Below, piece by piece: positions 1,418-18,122 of a stretch of 64,000 nt of DNA (position 1 is its first letter; each line of letters begins with the position of its first letter). A model generated the notes under the pieces. The model had not been told where the DNA came from. It saw only the letters and a program-made list of their open reading frames with translations, and ran no database searches. The DNA lies in assembly GCA_964410905.1 (NCBI GenBank), contig CAYPIR010000004.1:9878-73877 (forward strand), in the 5' to 3' direction. The stretch comes from an uncultured bacterium (GTDB taxonomy: Bacteria > Omnitrophota > Omnitrophia > Omnitrophales > Aquincolibacteriaceae). The position numbers and the translations under genes were made by a program.

Positions 1418-2731
1418 CTATGAGTTTGGTTTTTCAATATTGTTTTTCACAAACGCTAAAACCCAACCAGCTTGCCTCTTACTTGCCCCGCGCAAAAGAT
1501 TTACGCTCGCGAATGCCTGCTTGCCCAAATTTCCTTTTTTTTCTGTCGACAAGATTATGGAGCGAGCCGCATCTGCCAACTCGTTTTCATCTGAAACTTT
1601 TATAGCGCCATCGCGAGAATTTAAATACTCATAAATTTTTTCAAAATTAAAAACATAACCTCCGTGCAAAATCGCTTTTTTAAACCGCGCGGCCTCAATA
1701 GGATTTTGTCCGCCATGTTTAACCAAACTTCCTCCTATAAAAACAAAATCCGCCATCAAATATGTGTCTCTTAAAATCCCGATTTTATTTAAAATTTGAA
1801 CTTCAGACGCGGGCGTATTTTTTCTCTCAGTCGCCAAAATGGTGTTTAGTTCCTTTTGCGTAAATATGCCGGAGATCTCCGCCGAGCGTTCAATATGTCT
1901 TGGAGCAATAAAAAGTTTTAAATTTGGAAATTCTTTTTTCAACGAGCTAAAAACTCGCGCGACAATTTCTTCTTCGCCCGGATGAGTGCTCCCAACAATC
2001 CAAACAATATCCGCCGCGCTATATCCCCACAAAGTTTTCATTTCCAAAACATCTTTTTCTGTCCAACTTTTTTCATCAACCAAATCAAACTTCATATTGC
2101 CCATATCTCTGACAGCTTCCTCGTCAACGCCAAGCGCGCGAAACCTTTTCGCGTCTTCTTCCGACTGCGCCAAAACAAATTTTATTTTTTGCCATATCGG
2201 CTTTAAAAACCATTTTATTTTTAAATAACGGCTCAGTGACCGCTTTGAAAGCCGCGCGTTAATCATGCCTACTGGGATTTTTCTTTTAAAGGCTTCCGTC
2301 AAAAAGTTAGGCCAAATTTCCGTCTCCACGAGCAGTACGCAAACAGGTTTAAAAAAATCAAAAAACTTCGCGACAATCCAAGAAAAATCAAATGGAAAAT
2401 AACAAACATGCACGCGGGTATTTTCGTATTTTTTTGCTATTTTTTGGCCTGTCGGAGTTACTGTGGTAAACAACACCTTGTATTCATTGTTTGCTTTAAG
2501 CCAATTTTCTAAAAACTTTTCTACCGCTATGGTTTCGCCAACGCTCACGGCATGTATCCAAACCCATTTTCCCGTTTGAAACTTTTCTTGCCACTCCTTA
2601 GGAAAAACTCCGCGCCTCTCATTCCACAAACTTTTGGGATTGCCAGCCTGTCTTATTTTCATTAGAAAAATCGGCGCATAAAAAATCCCGAAAAAAAGAA
2701 ACGCCGTATTGTAAAAAAAAGTTCTTAACAT
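1418..2731 (-). CDS. waaA: 3-deoxy-D-manno-octulosonic acid (Kdo) transferase
   Basis: 437 aa; N-terminal TM segment, WIHAVSVGE motif, glycosyltransferase family 30 features; synteny with lpxK. Confidence 0.85.
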   Translation of the reverse strand: MLRTFFYNTAFLFFGIFYAPIFLMKIRQAGNPKSLWNERRGVFPKEWQEKFQTGKWVWIHAVSVGETIAVEKFLENWLKANNEYKVLFTTVTPTGQKIAKKYENTRVHVCYFPFDFSWIVAKFFDFFKPVCVLLVETEIWPNFLTEAFKRKIPVGMINARLSKRSLSRYLKIKWFLKPIWQKIKFVLAQSEEDAKRFRALGVDEEAVRDMGNMKFDLVDEKSWTEKDVLEMKTLWGYSAADIVWIVGSTHPGEEEIVARVFSSLKKEFPNLKLFIAPRHIERSAEISGIFTQKELNTILATERKNTPASEVQILNKIGILRDTYLMADFVFIGGSLVKHGGQNPIEAARFKKAILHGGYVFNFEKIYEYLNSRDGAIKVSDENELADAARSIILSTEKKGNLGKQAFASVNLLRGASKRQAGWVLAFVKNNIEKPNS

Positions 2732-2734
2732 TTA

Positions 2735-3613
2735 TTACGACCTTGGATGCGAGGCTTCATAAGCATCTTTTAGACGTTGCGTTGTCACATGCGTATAAAT
2801 CTGAGTAGTAGAAAGATTGGCGTGCCCCAAAAGCTCCTGCACGCTTCTTAAATCCGCGCCATTATCTAAAAGATGAGTCGCGAACGAATGTCTGAAAGTG
2901 TGAGGAGAAATTTCCTTTCCCAATCCGCTGCGGCGAACATATTTCAAAACCATTCGCCTAACACTGCGGTCGGTAAGGCGCGTCCCAATTCGGCTTACAA
3001 AAAGAGGTTTTTTTAGTCCGCCCAAGTTTTCTTTAGGAGGTTTTGTTTCTAAATACAAACGAAGCGCGTTTAGCGCCTTATCGCCAACAGGCACCATTCT
3101 CTCTTTTTTGCCTTTACCGCGAACAAGCAGAACTCCGCCGGAAAAATCCAAATCGTCTTTATTTAATCCTTCAAGCTCGCTTACGCGAAGCCCCGAACTA
3201 TAAAGGATTTCCAAAATCGCTCTGTCGCGTTTTTCTTCCCAAGAATTTTTCGCCGGCGCGTTCAAAAGTTTTTCTATTTCCGAAACGTCCATAAATTCAG
3301 GCAATTTTTTTTCTTTTTTCGGAGTAGCAACGCCGGACGCCGGGTTTTGTAATAAAATATTTTCTCGCGCTAAGTATTTAAAAAAGGAACGAAGGCAAGC
3401 AAGTTTTCTGGAAATTGAATTTTTGCAGTAAGCCTTTGTTTTAAGGTGCGCCAAAAACGCTCTGATATCTAAATACGTCAGCTGCTTAATTTCTTTTTTT
3501 TTACTAAATTCCGCGAACTCTCGCAAATCTATCGCGTAATTTTTTATCGTGTGCTTTGACGCGCCTTTTTCCGTTCTAAGAAATCCTAGAAAATTCTCAA
3601 CAAATTTTTCCAT
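2735..3613 (-). CDS. Tyrosine site-specific recombinase, XerC/XerD family
   Basis: 292 aa; C-terminal catalytic region HTFRHSFATHLL...LGHANLSTTQIYTHV (R-H-R-Y signature). Confidence 0.8.
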   Translation of the reverse strand: MEKFVENFLGFLRTEKGASKHTIKNYAIDLREFAEFSKKKEIKQLTYLDIRAFLAHLKTKAYCKNSISRKLACLRSFFKYLARENILLQNPASGVATPKKEKKLPEFMDVSEIEKLLNAPAKNSWEEKRDRAILEILYSSGLRVSELEGLNKDDLDFSGGVLLVRGKGKKERMVPVGDKALNALRLYLETKPPKENLGGLKKPLFVSRIGTRLTDRSVRRMVLKYVRRSGLGKEISPHTFRHSFATHLLDNGADLRSVQELLGHANLSTTQIYTHVTTQRLKDAYEASHPRS

Positions 3614-3619
3614 ACTTTC

Positions 3620-5764
3620 TTATACGTTCTCTTGAGAAAGAGCTTCGTCATCGTTTTTCTGGGGCAATGTGTTGGTTTTATAATCGCATTCAGGATACTT
3701 GGAGCAGCCGTAAAAAACCCGCTGTCCTTTTGCTTTAGTTCTACGCTTTACAAGTTCTCCGCCGCAGCCTTCTTTAGGACAGAAAAACCCTGTCGGAATT
3801 GAACGCGTAAACTTGCAATCAGGAAACCCTGAACATGCCATAAATTTTCCAAATCGCCCAAATTTAATGACAAGCGGTTTGCCGCATTTGTCGCATTTAT
3901 ATTCTGTTTGAATCGGCGCGGGGCGGACATTTTTCATTTCTGTCTGAGCGCGCGTCAAGGCCTCGCCAAATGGTCCATAAAAATCTTTTAAGACTTGCAC
4001 CCATCCGCCTTTTGTTTGCCATTCTCCGCTCGCTATCTCATCTAACTCTTCTTCCATCCTGGCCGTAAATTTTTCGTCTAAAATTGTCGGGAAATGTTGG
4101 ACCAACAAGTCCAAAACCGTTTCGCCAAGTTCCGTAGAAATAAGCGCTTTTGCCTTTCTTTCAACATACATACGCGCCAAAAGAGTCGCGATTGTGGGAG
4201 CATAAGTGCTGGGGCGGCCAATTCCTTTTTCGTCCAAAAGTTCAATCAAACTCGCGTCATTAAAATGCGCCGGAGGTTTCGTGAAATGCTGTTCGCCCAA
4301 AAGTTCACGCAGTAAAAGAGCCTCGCCGGCGCTTAGTTTCGGAAGTTCATTTGACTCCGCCGCCAAATCATCTTCCGCGTCTTGTGTTTCGCTTTTGGGT
4401 TTTTGAAAATCACCGAATACCGCGGTATAGCCCGGGAAAATATTTTTCTTTCCGGTCGTTTTGAAATAATATTTGTTTCCCGCCGTAATAATCACCGCTA
4501 TGTGCTCATCAAGCGTCGGCGTCATTTGAGAAGCAATAAATTTTCTCCAAATCATTTCATAAAGTTTTAACTCATCGGCTTCCAAAAATTGGCGGACTTT
4601 TTCCGGCGTATTTAAAACATTTGTCGGGCGAATCGCCTCATGCGCCTCTTGAGCATTTTTCTTTGCCTTATAAACATTTGGCTTTTCGGGTAAATATTCT
4701 TTGCCAAATGTCCCTAGAATGTATTTTGCCGCCTCGTCCGCCGCTTCAGGAGAAACATTAACGGAGTCCGTTCTCATATAAGTAATCAAGCCTTCGTTCC
4801 CGTCCGCGCCCAAGTCAACGCCTTCATAAAGTTTTTGCGCGATTCGCATCGTGTTGGCGGCCGTAAATCCTAAACGGCTGGAAGCTTCTTGCTGCAATTT
4901 ACTGGTCGTGTAAGGAGCTTGAGGGCGTCTGCGTTTTTGAGTAACATCAACGCTCTCAACGACAAACGGGAGGTTTTCGATTTCTTTTTTAATTTGCTCA
5001 GTAATTTCTTTTTCTTTTAATTTCGCTTTATCATCGCCAATTTGATAAAATCGCGCGGTAAATTTTTTTTCTACTTCCTCGCCGGCTTTTGCGGAAAGGC
5101 TTGCATCAAGCGTCCAATATTCTTCCGGCTTAAACGCCTTAATCTCACGCTCACGTTCAACAATAAACCGCAATGCCACAGATTGAACGCGCCCCGCACT
5201 CAAGCCCCGCCCAACATTTTTCCACAAAAGTGGGCTAATTTGATAACCGACCACGCGATCAAGAATACGACGCGCTTGCTGCGCGTCAACAAGATTCATG
5301 TCAATGTTGCTGGGATTGGCAAAGCCTTTTAAAACCGCGTCCTTCGTAATCGCGCCATATTTAACCCGCAAAAATTTTTGATTATGGTTTTGCTCGGAAA
5401 AAATAGTTTTTAAGTGCCATGCGATAGCCTCCCCTTCGCGGTCTTCATCGGGAGCGAGATAAATAATTTCGCGGTTTTCAGCGTCTTTCTTGAGCTGCTT
5501 CTCGATTTTCTTGGATTTCGGAGGAATAATGTATTCGGGCGTAAAATCATGTTCAATATCTACCGCCATTCGACTTTTAGGGAGGTCGCGAATATGCCCC
5601 ATTGATGCCACAACAAAATAATCTTTGCCTAAAAAATGATTAATTTTTTCGGCTTTGCCGGGTGATTCAACAATCACAAGATACTTAGCCCCGGAACCGC
5701 GCCTTGAAACACTAGCGGACTTAGCTCTTTTTCTAACTTTTTTCATCTTTTCAGAATCAGCCAC
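3620..5764 (-). CDS. topA: DNA topoisomerase I (type IA) with C-terminal zinc-ribbon repeats
   Basis: 714 aa; Toprim region (VVASMGHIRDLP), TYMRTDS active-site region, multiple C-x2-C...C-x2-C zinc fingers at the C-terminus. Confidence 0.9.
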   Translation of the reverse strand: MADSEKMKKVRKRAKSASVSRRGSGAKYLVIVESPGKAEKINHFLGKDYFVVASMGHIRDLPKSRMAVDIEHDFTPEYIIPPKSKKIEKQLKKDAENREIIYLAPDEDREGEAIAWHLKTIFSEQNHNQKFLRVKYGAITKDAVLKGFANPSNIDMNLVDAQQARRILDRVVGYQISPLLWKNVGRGLSAGRVQSVALRFIVEREREIKAFKPEEYWTLDASLSAKAGEEVEKKFTARFYQIGDDKAKLKEKEITEQIKKEIENLPFVVESVDVTQKRRRPQAPYTTSKLQQEASSRLGFTAANTMRIAQKLYEGVDLGADGNEGLITYMRTDSVNVSPEAADEAAKYILGTFGKEYLPEKPNVYKAKKNAQEAHEAIRPTNVLNTPEKVRQFLEADELKLYEMIWRKFIASQMTPTLDEHIAVIITAGNKYYFKTTGKKNIFPGYTAVFGDFQKPKSETQDAEDDLAAESNELPKLSAGEALLLRELLGEQHFTKPPAHFNDASLIELLDEKGIGRPSTYAPTIATLLARMYVERKAKALISTELGETVLDLLVQHFPTILDEKFTARMEEELDEIASGEWQTKGGWVQVLKDFYGPFGEALTRAQTEMKNVRPAPIQTEYKCDKCGKPLVIKFGRFGKFMACSGFPDCKFTRSIPTGFFCPKEGCGGELVKRRTKAKGQRVFYGCSKYPECDYKTNTLPQKNDDEALSQENV

Positions 5765-7965: not shown

Positions 7966-10900
7966 TTACGCAGATTTGGCAATTACGAAATCGCTGGCAA
8001 GTTTTTCCGCCAGAGATTTAAAAAGCGTTCCCGCCAAATTCAGGAACCTATTAATCATTTTTTCATTCACAACAATCGGTTTCTCGCGCAGCGCTTCTGT
8101 CAACTCTTCCGCCAACGCGAGTTCGTCTGAGCTGATCATCGCTTTAAGCGAAATGCCGTTTTTGGCAAGAAATTTAACCGCCTCTGTCGCGTCAGAAAAA
8201 ACTTCCACTCTATTTTGAAGATTTTCCGCCGCTATGATTTTTTTAATACTTTCAATTTGCGAACGGTCTTTTTCCAAAATCACAAAACTGCTCCCCGCGT
8301 AAATCGTCTTAGCAAGCGCCAGCAAACCCTTTCCTTTAGCGAGCGCCAAATCCGCGCCCAAAATAAACGAGTCGTTTCCATTAACTTCAAGCCCAAGCGC
8401 TCCAACGGCATTTTGAATAGAAGTTTTAGCCCCTTTGGAAGAAATGCTATTGCTAGCCTCTGTATCAGCGGCCAAACGTTCTGGATTAGCAAGAGCGGAA
8501 GCGAGTCCATCTGTTACCTCTGCCGTTACAAAACGGCTCGAGCTTTCGCTTCCGCCGGCATTTCCGTCCGCTGTTTTATTTTCATTTAGAAAATAAGAAG
8601 ACGGAATGTTTTCTTCATTTTTTCGCGCGCGAACGTCAGCGCGGTAAACTATTGCTTCCACAATAGAGTTTCCGCTTGAACCAAACGCGTCTCTTTTTCT
8701 AACCGTCCAATCTATAGCATTCTCATTTCCGACTCTGGAATACCCTTCATCTCTTCCAAGACGAAGCCTCCTGTCAAATTCCGCCATTGCCTTGTTAAAA
8801 ATTTCCAAAATTTTTTCACTTTCCTTTTCGCTGGGCAGAAGAGTTGTTCCCGCTTGAAATTCTTCGGCATCAACTCCATTTTTCAAATTTTCTTTTTCAA
8901 GCCTAGCCTCTATTGAATATTTCAGATAATGAGGCAGCCGCACAGCCTCAAGCCATTGCGTTCTATCACGGCCGTTCGCGCCTTCACGATTAACCGGAAC
9001 GCCTACCGTCCAACCATCGCCATCTTTTGAATGATAAAAACTATCTCCAGAACGAATGCCGTAAATTCGGCCTCGCAAAGCGTTCACTACAACATAAGAC
9101 GCAGTCGAAGAATTTTGAATGGGAGATTTTGACAAATCAAGAACCTTAAACCACGCCTTACCGTCTTGAACGTTATACGGCTCTGATGAGAAATGAATCA
9201 CATTAAAAAGATTTCTTTCTTTAAATTTTCTCGACATCGCAAATCCGCTTGTCGGATCGGTTTTGCGAATAAGCGCTTTGCCGTCCTTAAAAAATCCTTT
9301 ATATTTTTCGGACTCTATTGTCTTTTTAAGCTGCGAGTAATATCCAAAATCCCAGTTCTTCATTTCATCAAGCAAAGACGGTTCCAAAAATGTTACAAAA
9401 CTCATCACCGCCCGCATCCCTCGCGCGAATGTTCCAACCGCAACATTTCTAGGAAGACCAGAAATTTCTTGCAACAATTCCTTCAAAGCGCCCGGCATTT
9501 CTTGAGCCTTTTGGATTTCGCGGGCGATAAAGTCAGCGTTATTTTGCTTTCCGGCAAAAAGATGTCCCTGCGAAAGATCTAATACTGCTAACAAAAACGG
9601 GTGCCCGACTCGTCCAAGTTCTTTTCTCTCTTTTGTATCAATCCTTGTAATTTTCAGCGCCTGAAATCCTACGTCCTTGGGAATGCCGACATCTAAACCT
9701 CTTTGAGTAATATCGCCGACAGAATACGAGCCGTATTTCGCGCTCAAGCCGGCGTCTTCTATACGAACCGTGCCCACGCCGGGCAACAATCCTTTCCAAA
9801 CGGGTCCGCCCTGTATTCTTCCCCAGACTTTAGCTGCATCACTTTTCTTTCCTTGAGGATAACCAAACCAGCCCCTGTCGAAAACAAGAAGATATACCGG
9901 ACCTTTTTCATAACGGAAAGGATACGCGGTTATCAAGTCCGTGGATGTTACAAACTCTTCATCGCCTGAAATCTTTTGGTTTTGCCGTTTTATAGCTTTT
10001 TCTAAATAGATTTTGTAGCCCGCATTTTTAAATATGGCGGGACTCCACGCTCGCTCATTTGCCGATTCTTGCAAATATTGTCCAAAAACATCTAATACGA
10101 AGGTGTCCAAAAGAGTAAGCGTTTCTTCATCTTTTATCTGTTCGCTTACAACACGGCTTATATCGTTCCATATATCCGCATAATCTTCATCGTAAACAGT
10201 TAGAAAAATCGCCCGTTTTTCTTCAACAGCGCTTACCCCGTCTATTTTCTTAAAAATCCCTTTTCTGAATGCCGCAAAACCCTCAACGGCGTTTCTCTTT
10301 ATTTTTTGGAACTCAGTTTTTTCTGTCTCGTCAAAAATATCTTCAAAGCTCGCGAGCTGCGTTGTATAAAAAACAGCTTTTTGCCAATTCAAAGTTTCCG
10401 CGGTGGCCGCTACGCGCTTAAAAATACTTTTCACTTCTATTCTTCGCGCGATTTCCCGCAACAATCTGCTAGCCTCTGGGATTCGGGTCAGCAGCACATC
10501 CATATTGTCCGTGCTAAGAGAACCCGCCAATTTTTCGATCTCTGTTTTTGCGACAACTTCAATCAATGAGTGCTCATTTTCAAACGGGCTTCTTTTAGTT
10601 TTCACCATTTCATCCGCCCAACCGTTTAAATCTGAATACCCAATGCCTTTAGCCGAGAATTCACTGGCGAGCCTGTCTAATTCTTCATATGTTGCGGCTA
10701 CTATTCTTTGTTCAGATCTGTTATTTTCATCACTTCGCACTTCATCGCGAAGACTTCCCCAAGCCACTTCGTTTTCTTTTACAACTCGCATCCAGAGCAA
10801 GTCTTCTACGCCCTCCACATGCAATTGCTTAGAAAGCGAGTCCACCATAATAAACGGCTGTCTTCCTTTAGTATCATCTATGATAATCGTATAAACCGTT

Positions 10901-13161
10901 CCTGATGCTCTAATTTTAAATTCGACAAGTGTTCCACGCAGTTTCTCTTCTGAAACATTTTTCTTTTCCAAAAACTTTACGATTGTCCCTCTCTCATCTT
11001 TTAAATCATCCTCAGAAAATGAAAAAATAGGCTGTGTTTGCCGCCCGCGATTTTCGCTTCTACTGACAAGATTTTTGGGATACATAAAAAACGAATCGCC
11101 CGCGCCCTTTAAAATCCATTCTTTTTCATCTTTTAAATTCGTAGCCTCTAACAGTTTAGTTAAAATAACTCGACCGGCGGAGTCAGGCATTAACAAATAA
11201 GCGTTTCCATTTTTTTTGTCTAAGTATTTTTGCCGTTCTTCTAAATTTTCCGGCAAATCTCGGGCAATGTTTCTATCCCAAATCTTCTGAGTGAAAACGC
11301 GCACTCGTTTGTTTTTTTCTTCATAAAGCGCCACCAACGCATCGGTGCTTTCAGATCCAATCGCCTTGCGAAATTCCGCAGGAATAGTTATCCGATTTTT
11401 TCCATCAAGATTAAGAAGGAATGTTCCTAAAAATTTACTTTCATAATCAACATCTATTAATTTCCTTAAAACATATTCAACAAGCTGTGGATTAATTTGC
11501 CCAACATTATCAACTATTTGTTTCACGAGAAGAGCGTAATCTCTTCGCCAATTTTCCGGATTCTGCGCTTGAGAGAATCTAATATCGCTCCGAACAGTCG
11601 GAGCTATATATGAACCGGAAACGCTTTTTCGTCCTAAAAGCGCCGTTAGATAATTTTTTTTATCTTGGAATGAAACTTCGCTTATTTTTGGGGTAATGCC
11701 GATATATGAAGCATAGTTTTTTTGAAACGCTTTTTGGAATCCTTCGGTATGAAATCCGCCCGTAATTAAAATCGTTTTTGTTTCGCCAAGTTCTTTTAAG
11801 CGGCTAAAAACGTTTTCCGCCATAAAATTTTCACGCTCAATCGCTCCCTCGTAAAACTTAAGAGCGTTTGAAAAAGTCTCTTTAACGCTCTGAAACTCCG
11901 CTTCGCGCGTAAGAGACAAATCAATTTGGGCGAGCTTAACTATCGATAATTTCTCTTCCCTCAACAAGTCATATTCCCGTCTGGACATTTCAAGCCGCAA
12001 CGCTTTTTTTATGAGTGAATATTCGTTTAAATTTTGAACAAGATTTTTTTCATCATTTGTTTTAATTAATTTTTCTTCGATTTCTTTAATAAGCCGCTCT
12101 ATTTCCGTTTGCAAGGTCTCGATATCAATTTCGGAAGTCAAAATCATTTTTTGTATAAAAACTTTAAGATTCGGATATGCGTCAAAAGAAAAATCTGCGG
12201 GGCTTGCGTCTACCAGACGTTCAAAAATAAACCTTGTTTCGTAAATTGGAAGTTCATTTCGGGAAGCGAGATCAAAGACTTTCTCAATATCAGCCACGAC
12301 TTTAGGATTTTCAAAACCTTCGTTTTTAATGTTTAGTCGAATATCATTTAAAAATTGTTCTTTCTCTTCCTCGAGTTTTTGGGAGGTGGGATTTTTTTCC
12401 GATTTAATTTTGAAATACCGAGTAAGAGCAGGATAATTTATTTGCTCGCTAATGTCCGCTAGATTTTTTTCTAGTTCCGATGAGTATGTCTTCTTTAATC
12501 TCTCAACCCAATCAGTGAGGGTTATTTTCCCGTCTTCGTAAGCAGTTTTCTCCGTTAAAAATTCACGAAGATTTTTATTCAGTTTTTCCCCCGCGGACTT
12601 TTGCCATTTTATATAAATTTTATTCAAAAACGTTTCCACTATTTTACGCTTAGAAAAAACTTCACGATAAAGCTCAAGATTCTTTTTATACTCTTCGGGA
12701 TTTTCAACTCCCCAGCCTTGAACAGCGTCTGGATGCTTCATCAGAAACGCTTCCGCCCCTGTCATTTCTCCCGCGCTCATCAATGCTTTATTAATTTTAT
12801 TTTGGACAGCTTCGTCTTCGGAGAATACGAAAAAATCGGGGTCAAGCTGAAAGCCCGCGCCTTCCATCAAAACCAGATTAATCCCGTAAGATTGGTATAG
12901 ATGCTCCAAAATAGCTTGTATGTTTTTTTGCGCGTCATAATTAGAATGCGCCTCTTGAATATGAACAATAAGCGGCGCGTCATTTTTCGCAAAAACAACT
13001 TTATCAATACTGCCAAGACCAAGCGGAATTTCCAAGCCAAAAGCCTTTGAAGAAGCCCCCGCTGTTACAAGCGTCGGCGCGTTCGCGAAAATATTTGTCG
13101 CAAAAAAAGTGGTTAAAACGCTAATTGATATGATTTTTTTAATTTGATTTTTAAAAGACAT
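7966..13161 (-). CDS. Giant (1731 aa) predicted secreted protein of unknown function. N-terminal Sec signal peptide, TraB/GumN-like N-terminal region, internal MraZ-like module, about 1000 aa unassigned C-terminal region
   Basis: Single uninterrupted ORF with an AAGAGGA RBS before the ATG. N-terminus MSFKNQIKKIISISVLTTFFATNIFANA|PT looks like a signal peptide with an AXA cleavage site. Residues about 577-697 align motif-for-motif with MraZ (see findings). Confidence 0.7.
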   Translation of the reverse strand: MSFKNQIKKIISISVLTTFFATNIFANAPTLVTAGASSKAFGLEIPLGLGSIDKVVFAKNDAPLIVHIQEAHSNYDAQKNIQAILEHLYQSYGINLVLMEGAGFQLDPDFFVFSEDEAVQNKINKALMSAGEMTGAEAFLMKHPDAVQGWGVENPEEYKKNLELYREVFSKRKIVETFLNKIYIKWQKSAGEKLNKNLREFLTEKTAYEDGKITLTDWVERLKKTYSSELEKNLADISEQINYPALTRYFKIKSEKNPTSQKLEEEKEQFLNDIRLNIKNEGFENPKVVADIEKVFDLASRNELPIYETRFIFERLVDASPADFSFDAYPNLKVFIQKMILTSEIDIETLQTEIERLIKEIEEKLIKTNDEKNLVQNLNEYSLIKKALRLEMSRREYDLLREEKLSIVKLAQIDLSLTREAEFQSVKETFSNALKFYEGAIERENFMAENVFSRLKELGETKTILITGGFHTEGFQKAFQKNYASYIGITPKISEVSFQDKKNYLTALLGRKSVSGSYIAPTVRSDIRFSQAQNPENWRRDYALLVKQIVDNVGQINPQLVEYVLRKLIDVDYESKFLGTFLLNLDGKNRITIPAEFRKAIGSESTDALVALYEEKNKRVRVFTQKIWDRNIARDLPENLEERQKYLDKKNGNAYLLMPDSAGRVILTKLLEATNLKDEKEWILKGAGDSFFMYPKNLVSRSENRGRQTQPIFSFSEDDLKDERGTIVKFLEKKNVSEEKLRGTLVEFKIRASGTVYTIIIDDTKGRQPFIMVDSLSKQLHVEGVEDLLWMRVVKENEVAWGSLRDEVRSDENNRSEQRIVAATYEELDRLASEFSAKGIGYSDLNGWADEMVKTKRSPFENEHSLIEVVAKTEIEKLAGSLSTDNMDVLLTRIPEASRLLREIARRIEVKSIFKRVAATAETLNWQKAVFYTTQLASFEDIFDETEKTEFQKIKRNAVEGFAAFRKGIFKKIDGVSAVEEKRAIFLTVYDEDYADIWNDISRVVSEQIKDEETLTLLDTFVLDVFGQYLQESANERAWSPAIFKNAGYKIYLEKAIKRQNQKISGDEEFVTSTDLITAYPFRYEKGPVYLLVFDRGWFGYPQGKKSDAAKVWGRIQGGPVWKGLLPGVGTVRIEDAGLSAKYGSYSVGDITQRGLDVGIPKDVGFQALKITRIDTKERKELGRVGHPFLLAVLDLSQGHLFAGKQNNADFIAREIQKAQEMPGALKELLQEISGLPRNVAVGTFARGMRAVMSFVTFLEPSLLDEMKNWDFGYYSQLKKTIESEKYKGFFKDGKALIRKTDPTSGFAMSRKFKERNLFNVIHFSSEPYNVQDGKAWFKVLDLSKSPIQNSSTASYVVVNALRGRIYGIRSGDSFYHSKDGDGWTVGVPVNREGANGRDRTQWLEAVRLPHYLKYSIEARLEKENLKNGVDAEEFQAGTTLLPSEKESEKILEIFNKAMAEFDRRLRLGRDEGYSRVGNENAIDWTVRKRDAFGSSGNSIVEAIVYRADVRARKNEENIPSSYFLNENKTADGNAGGSESSSRFVTAEVTDGLASALANPERLAADTEASNSISSKGAKTSIQNAVGALGLEVNGNDSFILGADLALAKGKGLLALAKTIYAGSSFVILEKDRSQIESIKKIIAAENLQNRVEVFSDATEAVKFLAKNGISLKAMISSDELALAEELTEALREKPIVVNEKMINRFLNLAGTLFKSLAEKLASDFVIAKSA

Positions 13162-15230: not shown

Positions 15231-15575
15231 TTATGCAAAGGCAGGTCGGCTTAACACATTTGTCGAAGCGTATTTCAAACGAGATCGTTTGGGGCGAATA
15301 ACAATTTCAACATCGTTTCCCAATCGATTTAACATTTCAAAAAGATTGTCTAAAGAGAAAAGGTTTATTTTGCCGTTTAAAAGACAAGACACTTTAGGCT
15401 GTGAAATATTCAGAGTTTCCGCGATTTGTTTTTGTTTTAACCCTCGTTTTTTAATTATTTCGTTAATTTTCAACATCACTTCTGCGCGCGCGCGAATGCG
15501 TTCGGGCATATTTATTTTGATGTCAGAAAACACATCATTGCTTTCGTGTTGAATTTTAATTTTTTGAATCATCAT
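15231..15575 (-). CDS. HigA-type XRE-family antitoxin / HTH regulator
   Basis: 114 aa; HTH (LKQKQIAETLNISQPKVSCLLNG). Its ATG overlaps (ATGA) the stop of the upstream HigB-like reading frame. Confidence 0.65.
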   Translation of the reverse strand: MMIQKIKIQHESNDVFSDIKINMPERIRARAEVMLKINEIIKKRGLKQKQIAETLNISQPKVSCLLNGKINLFSLDNLFEMLNRLGNDVEIVIRPKRSRLKYASTNVLSRPAFA

Positions 15576-15951
15576 TTATTCCCTTTCAAATAATAATTCT
15601 TATAATCCTTTCTCGCCGTTTTAAATCTTGTCCAAATCAGCCTCATTTCTATAAGCGGTGTCTTGATGTCATGCTTCGATTTTTTTGAAAACACTGCAGT
15701 GCATAAATTGCTTTCGGATATTTTATTGTATAAACAACACGGTAAGTTCCGCCTTTGGAATTATCAAAAGTTTTAAATATTCTCGTATTCCCAAAACCTG
15801 ATAACCGATTTGTCCTATAAGGCTACCCTCTGCGCTGGACAAGAAAAAGTCCGTATCCAATATTTTCTTTAACAGACTCTGGGAAACCGTTCTGATCTTC
15901 TCTAGCTAACTCAACGAAATCTATTTTCCTTACTTTTGTCGCATCTTTCAT
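15572..15951 (-). pseudogene. HigB-like (Gp49/RelE-superfamily) toxin, disrupted by an in-frame TAG and a -1 frameshift
   Basis: Minus-strand reading from the ATG at 15951 gives MKDATKVRKIDFVELAREDQNGFPESVKENIGYGLFLVQRRG, then TAG (15823-15825), then PYRTNRLSGFGNTRIFKTFDNSKGGTYRVVYTIKYPKAIYALQCFQ. A run of A7 (plus-strand T7 at 15680-15686) then shifts the frame. In the +1 frame the read continues KKSKHDIKTPLIEMRLIWTRFKTARKDYKNYYLKGNK* and ends on a TGA that overlaps the antitoxin ATG. This matches the HigB consensus (G.YRVIY...LHAFQKKTQKTP..EI..A..R). Confidence 0.6.
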
Positions 15952-16120
15952 AATATATCATATTTGATATAAATTAACGAGCTTCTTGTTTTTACAAAAA
16001 GAATATATTTATATATAAAATATTACATATCAATTTGCATGTCACCGCTCCGTTTTTAACCAAAAAAAGTGCAATAGACGTTGTGCATGCCAATCATTTC
16101 ATGGACAGATTTTGATACTT

Positions 16121-16250
16121 AGTCATCGCATCGATGCCCAATGCATCGATACTGGAAGTACCACAACCTTACGTTTGCAGTCATTCCGCATCGATGCCCA
16201 ATGCATCGATACTGGAAGTACCACAACCTTACGGCACTGTCATTCCGCGC
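16121..16250. repeat. 60-bp direct tandem repeat, about 2.2 copies, each containing the palindrome GCATCGATGC
   Basis: 16127-16173 and 16187-16233 are identical over 47 bp (cgcatcgatgcccaatgcatcgatactggaagtaccacaaccttacg). A third unit starts at 16241 (tcattccgcg) and then diverges. Confidence 0.85.
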
Positions 16251-16523
16251 GTTGCTTTTTAACGTCGCGGAATCCAAATACAAAAAACCTTTAGAACCTG
16301 CAACTTCACTACGTTTCGTGCAGGATGACGCAATAGACGAATGCTACGAGGCAGACTCGCTATTACGTATCGGCGAATTCAAACTGGACGAGACGACAAA
16401 TCCTCGCTTGTTTGTGTCAATGCAATGAGCATTGACTTGTCGCCGATGCCGCTTAACTAATCCTGTTTACGAAATTATTGACTTCTACAGACGTGATAAA
16501 TTTTTTGACCCGTTTTTGCTTTA

Positions 16524-18122
16524 ATGGCAAACTACGCGCCTATGCAACAATTGCAGCCGACAAAAAAACAAAATCTATTGGCACAGCTTTTTAAAATCAA
16601 AGATTTAAGTCTGATTTTAAAAGAATCACACGACCCCGCGAAGCAACTCAAAAAATCGCTAACCGCTCTCGACCTCATTTTCTTAGGCATCGGCGCGATT
16701 ATCGGCGCGGGAATTTTTACCGTAGTCGGAACCGCCGCGGCGGGAGACTTAGTCCGTCCCGGCGCAGGCCCCGGAATTATTCTGTCGTTTGTTTTAAGCG
16801 CTGTCGCGTGCGGTTTTGCCGCTCTTTGTTATTCAGAGTTCGCCGCGATGATTCCAATATCAGGTAGCGCTTACACTTATTCATATGCTTCTTTTGGCGA
16901 GCTCATAGCGTGGGTTATCGGGTGGGATTTGATTTTAGAATATACAGTCGCCAATATCGCTGTCGCAATAAGTTGGTCGGGCTATTTCACAGAATTCATT
17001 CACGGCTTTGGCGTTTATCTTCCAGAGTGGGCAACGGTAGATTTTAAAACAGCGTTTCATGGATTTGAAAAAGCGGCAACGCTGCTAGCGCAGGGGCAAA
17101 CCCTCGAATCTCTTCCCCACGCTCTGCAAAAAACATATCTGGCGATTCACAACGCTCCGCATTTTCTTGGAATGCCGGTTGTGGTAAACGCTCCCGCGTT
17201 TATTATTGTTTTCCTCATTACAACTCTTCTTGTCATCGGCATAAAAGAAAGCGCACGGTTCACTTCGTTTATGGTTGTTATCAAACTTTTGATTTTGGCT
17301 CTTTTTGTAAGCGTAGGAATTTTTTACGTTAAACCGGAAAACTGGACACCGTTTGCCCCGAACGGTTTTGCCGGAATAAAAACAGGCGCCGCCATTGTCT
17401 TTTTTGCTTACATAGGGTTTGACGCCGTGTCCACAGTCGCCGAAGAAACAAAAAATCCGCAAAAAAATCTTCCTATCGGAATTTTAGGCTCGCTGGTTAT
17501 TTGCACGTTTATTTACATAATCGTCTCAGCGATATTTACAGGCATGATCCCGTTTTCATTATTAAAAGAAACTCCCGCGCATCAAAAAGCGGAAGCTCTT
17601 GCTTGGGCAATGCGTTTTATCGGACAAAATTGGGCAACGGGAATTGTCGCTGCGGGCGCGCTAACCGCGCTAACGGCTGTATTGCTTGTTATGCAGCTAG
17701 GACAAACTCGTATATTTTTCGCGATGTCGCGAGACGGGCTTTTGCCTCGTTTTTTTTCAAAAGTTCATCCCAAATTTAAAACACCTTATATCACAACTAT
17801 TTTAACGGGACTTTTCGTTGCGTCCGTGGCGTCGTTTACAAACATAGACGATATGGTCGATTTGACAAACATTGGGACACTATTCGCCTTCGCACTGGTT
17901 TGTTTTGGTGTAATTATTCTGAGAGTAAAAGAGCCGTATAAACATCGTTCTTTTTCCGTTCCATTGAATCCTCTTCTTCCGCTGCTTGGCGTTGCGTCTT
18001 GTGTTTTTTTAATGACAGGGCTTCCGACAATTACGTGGATTCGTTTCGTGATTTGGCTTGTGTTGGGACTTTGTTTTTATTTCATTTACGGATTAAAACA
18101 TAGTCTTTTACATAAAAACTAA
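16524..18122 (+). CDS. Amino acid permease (APC superfamily)
   Basis: 532 aa, 12+ hydrophobic helices; N-terminal signature LDLIFLGIGAIIGAGIFTVVG typical of APC-family amino-acid transporters. Confidence 0.8.
   Translation: MANYAPMQQLQPTKKQNLLAQLFKIKDLSLILKESHDPAKQLKKSLTALDLIFLGIGAIIGAGIFTVVGTAAAGDLVRPGAGPGIILSFVLSAVACGFAALCYSEFAAMIPISGSAYTYSYASFGELIAWVIGWDLILEYTVANIAVAISWSGYFTEFIHGFGVYLPEWATVDFKTAFHGFEKAATLLAQGQTLESLPHALQKTYLAIHNAPHFLGMPVVVNAPAFIIVFLITTLLVIGIKESARFTSFMVVIKLLILALFVSVGIFYVKPENWTPFAPNGFAGIKTGAAIVFFAYIGFDAVSTVAEETKNPQKNLPIGILGSLVICTFIYIIVSAIFTGMIPFSLLKETPAHQKAEALAWAMRFIGQNWATGIVAAGALTALTAVLLVMQLGQTRIFFAMSRDGLLPRFFSKVHPKFKTPYITTILTGLFVASVASFTNIDDMVDLTNIGTLFAFALVCFGVIILRVKEPYKHRSFSVPLNPLLPLLGVASCVFLMTGLPTITWIRFVIWLVLGLCFYFIYGLKHSLLHKN

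Follow-up and report, generated by a model that had tools for sequence, protein, structure and literature searches.

Genomic context of the repeat locus

The window analysed here is a whole 64-kb stretch of Omnitrophota DNA, and all positions given below are those of the window. The locus is a non-coding stretch of 572 bp (15952–16523), longer than the roughly 440 nt given in a first-pass annotation of the sequence, and it lies between divergent genes. A toxin pseudogene is transcribed divergently from the gene of an amino-acid permease, and the genes that frame the locus are as follows.

15231–15575, minus strand: intact antitoxin gene of the HTH_37/XRE type (PF13744, E = 7.6e-25)
15572–15951, minus strand: pseudogene of a Gp49/HigB-like type II toxin, with one in-frame stop and one frameshift in the six-frame translation
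16524–18122, plus strand: APC-family amino-acid/polyamine permease, whose nearest named relatives are all from Candidatus Omnitrophota, at 65–78% identity

The repaired translation of the toxin pseudogene matched PF05973 (E = 4.3e-13), and the Gp49/HTH toxin-antitoxin (TA) module is evidently decaying. The locus encodes a candidate DNA-binding protein, the HTH_37 antitoxin, for which a word-indexed protein database returned no relatives. A palindrome, ATATCA-N4-TGATAT, occupies 15955–15970, immediately upstream of the toxin start. The sole promoter-like site was found on the minus strand at 16045–16017, at the TA operon, while no terminator-like site was found on either strand and no upstream promoter-like site on the plus strand. 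The other neighbours are xth, a gene for an ACT-domain protein and a saccharopine-dehydrogenase-like gene. A very large ORF of 1731 aa is located about 3 kb upstream of the locus (7966–13161, minus strand).

The base composition changes sharply across the locus. The GC content is 47–49% in the block 16121–16430, 27–35% in the TA module and its flanks, and 37% in the 93 bp nearest the permease. The repeat block, being higher in GC than the flanking spacer, therefore looks inserted and not like ordinary spacer. A gene remnant was considered for the interval and rejected, as Pfam and PADLOC searches of the long stop-free frames of 16040–16530 gave only sub-threshold noise. No recorded entry was returned for the antitoxin in its 114-aa form or for the intergenic ORFs, which are 95, 75 and 60 aa long.

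Structure of the tandem repeat units

Repeat and pattern searches identified two 47-nt copies that are 100% identical and offset by 60 bp, a repeat pair for which 0 occurrences are expected by chance (100 shuffles). In both copies, GCATCGATGC is followed after a gap of 5 nt by GCATCGATAC, in agreement with the first-pass annotation, and the spacer between the two repeats is 13 nt. The 60-bp unit of that annotation is, in register, a unit of 59 nt, in which a head of 10 nt is followed by a hairpin core and then by a variable linker of 5–6 nt. The repeat features of the locus are listed below.

16121–16179, plus strand: unit 1, with a head carrying a 2-nt deletion (AGTCAT--CGC), an 8-5-8 hairpin core ATCGATGC/CCAAT/GCATCGAT, then ...CACAACCTTACG and the linker TTTGCA
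16127–16173, plus strand: 47-nt copy 1, with GCATCGATGC at 16128–16137 and GCATCGATAC at 16143–16152
16180–16238, plus strand: unit 2, with the head GTCATTCCGC, the hairpin TTCCG-C-ATCGATGC-CCAAT-GCATCGAT-AC-TGGAA, then ...CACAACCTTACG and the linker GCACT
16187–16233, plus strand: 47-nt copy 2, with GCATCGATGC at 16188–16197 and GCATCGATAC at 16203–16212
16239–16329, plus strand: full palindromic element of 91 nt, GTCATTCCGCGCG...CGTGCAGGATGAC, a member of the repeat family found on three foreign contigs (L014, L015 and L016)
16242–16273, plus strand: strong local hairpin in the 5' arm of the element, ATTCCGCGCGTT / GCTTTTT / AACG-T-CGCGGAAT
16416–16436, plus strand: further 8-5-8 hairpin, GTCAATGC/AATGA/GCATTGAC, found with a post hoc search pattern

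In each unit, the ClaI-site palindrome makes up the 5' arm of a stem of 8 bp, which closes on a loop of 5 nt and is lengthened by the pairing of TTCCG with TGGAA. The perfect 10-bp palindrome is nested in an imperfect one of 22 bp (CATTccGCATCGATGCccAATG). Folding of unit 2 as DNA gave −10.3 kcal/mol for the plus strand and −12.0 kcal/mol for the minus strand, and folding as RNA gave −15.7 and −25.6 kcal/mol, respectively. The hairpin is stronger on the minus strand because one C-A mismatch turns into a G-U pair. The linkers are wholly different, although the 47-nt cores are 100% identical, a combination that could also come from selection acting on the core, perhaps as a binding site.

The repeat was confined to this locus in every search of the window. 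Four sites matching GCATCGATRC were observed in the window, all within the repeat, where 0.2 were expected. A 46-mer of the repeat had no further occurrence in the window with 3 mismatches allowed (0 expected), and a word-7 blastn search of the whole intergenic region against the window returned no other similarity longer than 13 nt. The array was absent from the output of Tandem Repeats Finder.

The hairpin at 16416–16436 shares its geometry and its ATGC-N5-GCAT core with the unit hairpins. Located where the GC-richer block 16121–16430 ends on the right, it is close to the starts of two independently assembled contigs described below (16420 and 16431). We also considered a restriction-site effect on ATCGAT, which was rejected as 16 sites were observed in the window against 16.2 expected, with no depletion or enrichment. 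GTAC, on the other hand, was about 4-fold depleted across the whole window (16 observed against 68 expected under a Markov model), GGTACC and CGTACG were absent from it, and AGTACT occurred once. This depletion suggests that the target of a GTAC-specific restriction system is avoided, and the repeat units contain two of the window's 16 GTAC sites.

A 91-nt palindromic element adjoins the repeat units

What had been described as a third truncated unit does begin with the 10-mer GTCATTCCGC at 16239, but it is really the head of a complete 91-nt imperfect palindrome. The element ends, GTCATTCCGCGCG and CGTGCAGGATGAC, form a terminal stem of 13 bp with 1 mismatch and 2 G-T pairs. An nhmmer search with a profile built only from 5 foreign elements matched the window at 16239–16328 over model positions 1–77 of 78 (E = 5.2e-7, 25.6 bits). 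This was the single significant match in the 64-kb window, the next having E = 2.1. Four foreign segments also singly matched the same interval with E-values from 9.4e-7 to 2.6e-8, values that are inflated by the small region searched (491 nt of intergenic sequence) and carry little independent weight.

The foreign elements came from an Aeromonadales MAG, GCA_054010055.1 (L014), and from two ENA metagenome scaffolds (L015 and L016). Within these sources, the element occurs once in 20 kb of L014, at least 5 times in the 3.4-kb L015 and twice in the 0.6-kb L016, whereas profile and blastn searches placed it at one locus in the 64-kb window. The family element is 78 nt long and reads GTCATTCCGA(G/C)CG.AGT.GAGGAATC...GATCCTTCAACT.CGCTAC.CTAC.TTCAGGATGAC, and its termini, GTCATTCCG...CAGGATGAC, are common to the window copy. 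The main divergence of the window copy is in its 5' arm, where the insert is 10 nt larger, and the copy scored 25.6 bits against 87–92 bits for the family members. These comparisons show, at the level of sequence, that the 91-nt element is homologous to elements of other uncultured bacteria, including the gammaproteobacterial MAG. Its mobility or dispersal in the source genome is unproven, with a single locus in 64 kb. Neither a transposase partner nor a target-site duplication nor an empty site could be identified, and no close relative with conserved synteny was found.

RNAalifold predicts a consensus fold that is a single long hairpin, with 22 pairs joining the 5' arm to the 3' arm, and this fold is kept in the window copy. 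Two of the pairs show compensatory double changes from A-U to C-G in the window copy, a covariation that is weak support at the low power of an alignment of six sequences, five of them close relatives. The local hairpin of the 5' arm (16242–16273) can also be written ATTCCGCGCGTT...AACGTCGCGGAAT. It was considered as a terminator and rejected, as no T-run follows it on either strand.

Several further features were observed around the foreign elements. They are followed by CTGTTTTTTCT (L014, 10130–10145; L015, 2269–2285; L016, 450–465), and their long hairpin together with the T-run could act as an intrinsic terminator; the window element has no such CTGTTTTTTCT tail or T-run. A MazE/PIN toxin-antitoxin pair in L015 (2378–3048) has copies of the 78-nt element on both sides (region 2023–3357). 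The MazE/PIN pair there and the Gp49/HTH module here hint at an association of the repeat family with small TA cassettes. In the same scaffold, at 1480–1780, related palindromic units (GATCCTTCGACTT.GCTCAGGATGAC and GTCATCCTGAGTG...GCGGAA) are located inside an ORF for quinolinate phosphoribosyltransferase (733–1926). Hairpins of the form GTCAT(T/C)C(C/T)GAGCG...CGCTC(A/G)G(A/G)ATGAC are common in MAGs of many phyla and give spurious ORFs of the 'VIPSE.../...LRF.QDD' type, and the units at L015 1480–1780 are related to hairpins of this GTCAT(T/C)C type.

The repeats also explain the ORFs called across them. A phmmer search with the 95-aa ORF (16141–16428) against 1.84 billion representatives gave a single borderline match, P0122 (E = 5.6e-4), an internally repeated pseudo-protein that matches only the translation of 16236–16330. 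P0122 as a query in turn returned two more such repeat-derived ORFs. The first-pass annotation had already regarded the ORFs at 16112–16294 and 16141–16428 as repeat-derived artefacts, and the sole phmmer match, itself a spurious ORF over repeats, bears this out.

Searches of wider collections returned nothing further. A 21-mer from one half of the hairpin (against GTDB genomes) and a 22-mer from the other half (against JGI metagenomes) matched nothing related, in collections that do not contain the source genome. The 47-mer was thus specific to this locus, as had been asked of it, within the 64-kb window and the collections scanned, which lack the source genome. IMG/VR scans with three patterns and a blastn search of the window intergenic region against phages and plasmids gave no match, nor did blastn of L016 against phages and plasmids or Rfam searches at the L015 and L016 elements. 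No entry for the family was found in Rfam or in the searchable literature, where searches with the element sequence or the run accessions returned only unrelated primers. Three exact-pattern matches lay in high-GC coding DNA of unrelated organisms, had no similarity past the seed and were set aside as chance. The second half of the unit is matched exactly over 23 nt (CTGGAAGTACCACAACCTTACGT) inside a 1075-aa ORF of a high-GC organism (L013, 3616–3638), and this is judged to be chance, with about 0.1 expected for the collection by a rough estimate of its size.

Tandem head arrays in the window and at foreign loci

The foreign full elements are directly preceded by 2–3 tandem head units with a period of 22–25 nt, in L014, L015 and both copies of L016. 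The foreign head unit is GTCATTCCGAGCC(C)CAAACCTTT, also written GTCATTCCGAG... The layout in the window is the same: two head-bearing units of 59 nt (period 59–60 nt) precede the full element, and all three share one orientation. Unit 2 and the full element begin with the identical 10-mer GTCATTCCGC, at 16180 and 16239, and the head of unit 1 differs by its 2-nt deletion. The window units are longer than the foreign ones, carrying a hairpin of their own between TTCCG and TGGAA.

Homology between unit and element over the full length of the unit was not supported: with the head removed, the similarity between the 59-nt units and the element's 5' part was not significant (p = 0.22, shuffling). 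A profile of the foreign 23-nt head unit did not match the window units, a profile of that length being too short to score. The parallel between the window and foreign arrays thus consists of a shared head and a shared architecture, and the rest is best described as analogy and not as demonstrated whole-unit homology.

Independent assemblies and copy number

Logan contigs carrying the same genes at 100% identity were obtained from four runs. On the left side, L009 (SRR11845623) stops with the final base of the first 47-mer (16173), L011 (SRR11845624) stops at 16156, 30 nt into the 47-mer, and L012 (SRR27197510) ends at 15855, short of the repeat. From the right, L001 starts at 16420 and L002 at 16431. 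The ends of L009 and L011 are where a k=31 graph must branch at a tandem 47-mer that can be entered and left by two paths each, so that the two-copy arrangement is supported independently of the MAG.

In L010 (SRR11845625), a single unit is read through: the left flank, the 47-mer, GCACT and GTCATTCCGCGCG... follow one another up to 16266. This one-unit form is either an allele from which one of two units was deleted or a low-coverage assembly collapse. The inner junction TTTGCAGTCATTC cannot be produced by simple duplication of the one-unit form. L010 crosses the 47-mer unbroken, which argues for no other context of the 47-mer in that metagenome. Its stop at 16266 lies 29 nt past 16237, which is 2 nt before the GTCAT head of the element. 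A k=31 break would be expected there if further copies of the element were present in the metagenome, which is suggestive only.

The permease upstream region

The array had been placed in a long leader of the permease gene. Orthologues of the permease at 77–79% identity have upstream intergenic gaps of about 110 bp (L005–L007), 163 bp (L008) and about 230 bp. L008 has a divergent neighbour, and its permease promoter therefore lies within 163 bp. The upstream regions of the orthologues showed no homology to window positions 16100–16430 and no synteny. Rfam 15 gave no match at the gathering score in the window and none even at E<=10 in 15900–16600, so that the proposed Rfam check for an RNA leader came back empty. 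A permease leader of 300–400 nt is unlikely from these comparisons, which lent the long-leader interpretation no support.

A TTGAC motif was seen 19–20 nt upstream of the permease ATG in three orthologues (window, 16505–16526; L005, about 3980–4003; L008, about 1200–1224), and the surrounding sequence in L005 and L008 is TTGACAAG.TCT.AAC.TCCATGG. This motif near the permease start may be a conserved promoter or a translation-initiation signal.

Origin of the array

The feature is real and non-random, and it belongs with the small palindromic repeat elements; its tandem-head architecture is unusual. We favour, with a probability of about 0.55, the reading that a slippage-type process reiterated the 5' head part of a small, palindromic, non-coding element of the MITE/REP-like kind, selfish or structural, and so produced the array. 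The locus would accordingly be laid out as head, hairpin and linker twice over (16121–16238), followed by the complete 91-nt element (16239–16329). At such hairpin-forming DNA, slipped-strand mispairing of GTCATTCCGC heads, or unequal recombination between them, would generate the units and keep them near-identical. This process could also delete a unit, taking two copies to one, and would account for a possible one-unit allele. The ClaI-type palindromes would be nothing other than the hairpin stem of each unit. The cluster would sit in a horizontally disturbed, decaying spot beside a TA remnant and would exert no dedicated control over the permease; any effect would probably be of the generic REP/BIME kind, as a DNA or RNA hairpin or as a spacer between divergent promoters. 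The first-pass annotation had itself named a dispersed REP/MITE-like repeat as what would overturn its regulatory reading. The family of the fused element is indeed multi-copy in other genomes, while the window holds one locus.

The main rival, which we consider doubtful, is a neutral local duplication, in which unequal exchange between chance repeats of 8–10 nt (GTCAT..CGC) around a segment of about 50 bp produced the array and its adjacency to the element is incidental. The direct repeats GTCATTCCGC do bracket the unit, there are only two copies, and the body of the unit has no significant similarity to the element. Yet the inner junction TTTGCAGTCATTC is not expected from a simple doubling of the one-unit form, the bracketing repeat coincides exactly with the head that is conserved in the element family, and head reiteration recurs in four foreign copies of the element. 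It is hardly credible that the second copy is an artefact of mis-assembled strain variants: L010 (SRR11845625) does read through with one unit, but the junction CCTTACG-TTTGCAGTCATTC-CGCATCG has the 47-mer on both sides and must therefore exist in reads, and L009 and L011 stop at the k=31 branch points 16173 and 16156.

Iterated operators, at which a dimeric protein would bind the ATCGAT-centred palindromes and control one or both divergent promoters, were the proposal of the first-pass annotation, and nothing was found in their support beyond the properties of the repeat and its surroundings. We consider them unlikely. The regulator would be the HTH_37 antitoxin or an amino-acid-responsive regulator, and the sites would be the four GCATCGAT boxes, spaced 15, 45 and 15 bp. 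Such a function would suit a perfect 10-bp palindrome within an imperfect one of 22 bp, the restriction of every GCATCGATRC site of the window to the array, identical 47-nt cores set beside freely varying linkers, and an intact HTH protein encoded about 550 bp away. The array, however, starts about 80 bp upstream of the sole promoter-like TA site (16045–16017) and lies 290–400 bp from the permease start; ATATCA-N4-TGATAT at the toxin start is the better candidate for a TA operator; the permease orthologues have no such sites, and the antitoxin has no close relatives for comparison. The palindrome is moreover fully accounted for as the hairpin stem of a unit fused to a family element. A structured RNA, transcribed as a hairpin array in a permease 5' leader (plus strand) or in an sRNA or TA leader (minus strand), appears improbable. 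The predicted folding energy of 16105–16285 is far below that of shuffled sequences (z = −4.1 on the plus strand and −6.3 on the minus strand), the G-U pair strengthens the minus-strand hairpin (−25.6 against −15.7 kcal/mol), and the long hairpin of the 91-nt element has its two compensatory pairs. Against this, any palindromic repeat in DNA should have a low folding energy, and mobile palindromic elements should show compensatory changes in their DNA hairpins just as much; there is no Rfam family at E<=10, no upstream promoter-like site on the plus strand, no terminator on either strand and no homologous leader in the orthologues. More speculative, and in our view very improbable, is that the GTCATTCCG...CAGGATGAC elements and the head modules are sites at which an undescribed mobile system recombines or transposes, moving small cassettes such as TA pairs between distant phyla (Omnitrophota and Gammaproteobacteria). 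The heads would then be recognition modules for a recombinase or an ssDNA transposase, and the 59-nt units a lineage-specific version. The context that supports this reading is that the elements flank MazE/PIN in L015 and adjoin Gp49/HTH here.

The reiterated-head reading, if correct, is a warning against taking palindromic tandem repeats in long intergenic regions for operators or riboswitch-like leaders. The repeat also explains the two spurious ORFs and the short-read assembly breaks at the locus, and it links an Omnitrophota locus with a small palindromic repeat family that is also present in a gammaproteobacterial MAG. If the head arrays and the TA association hold genome-wide, the elements could serve as a possible marker of horizontal DNA flow among uncultured bacteria and as a tractable case of hairpin-driven tandem reiteration.

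Comparison with known repeat systems

Several systems that share single traits with the locus were rejected. CRISPR, which the first-pass annotation had rightly discounted, would not fit two 47-nt repeats 13 nt apart, fewer than three repeats in all, with no cas-like neighbour. Integron attC sites were rejected as the element ends are GTCATTC...GGATGAC, without the AAC and GTT triplets of the RYYYAAC/GTTRRRY core sites, and replicon iterons as the neighbours include no rep gene or origin and there are only two repeats. The locus resembles an antitoxin RNA of type III TA systems (ToxI/CptI-type) in having a short direct-repeat array followed by a strong hairpin at a TA locus; however, no gene of the ToxN/AbiQ/CptN/TenpN type was found downstream on either strand with Pfam and PADLOC, there is no terminator or U-tract, and the neighbouring TA module is of type II.

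REPs and BIMEs of E. coli and pseudomonads are associated with RAYT, have GTAG or GTGG heads and occur every few kb, and the units of BIMEs alternate in orientation. The locus is like them in its short, imperfect, intergenic palindromes, which are clustered with short linkers, form hairpins on both strands, are non-coding and give spurious ORFs. It differs in the head, which is GTCAT(T/C)C and not GT(A/G)G, in the direct orientation of all units where those of BIMEs alternate, and in the lack of a second unit, palindrome or element copy in the whole 64 kb, a length over which REPs would recur every few kb. Among the neighbouring genes scanned there was no transposase.

The likeness to MITEs and to Rickettsia palindromic elements (RPEs) lies in a non-coding element of 78–128 nt with imperfect terminal inverted repeats, which is multi-copy in L015. 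The window element has the terminal inverted repeats, the small size (91 nt) and the non-coding nature of a MITE, with no protein family match. Tandem head arrays are not classical for MITEs, and there is no known autonomous partner. RPEs are in-frame insertions within ORFs, and the GTCATCCTGAG / CTCAGGATGAC units likewise lie inside the L015 ORF called QRPTase.

The closest likeness is to the L014/L015/L016 family, with which the window element shares a full-length profile match, the same termini, the long-hairpin fold and tandem heads upstream. The window locus is set apart from that family by head units of 59 nt that carry an 8-5-8 hairpin of their own, in contrast to the foreign units of 22–25 nt.
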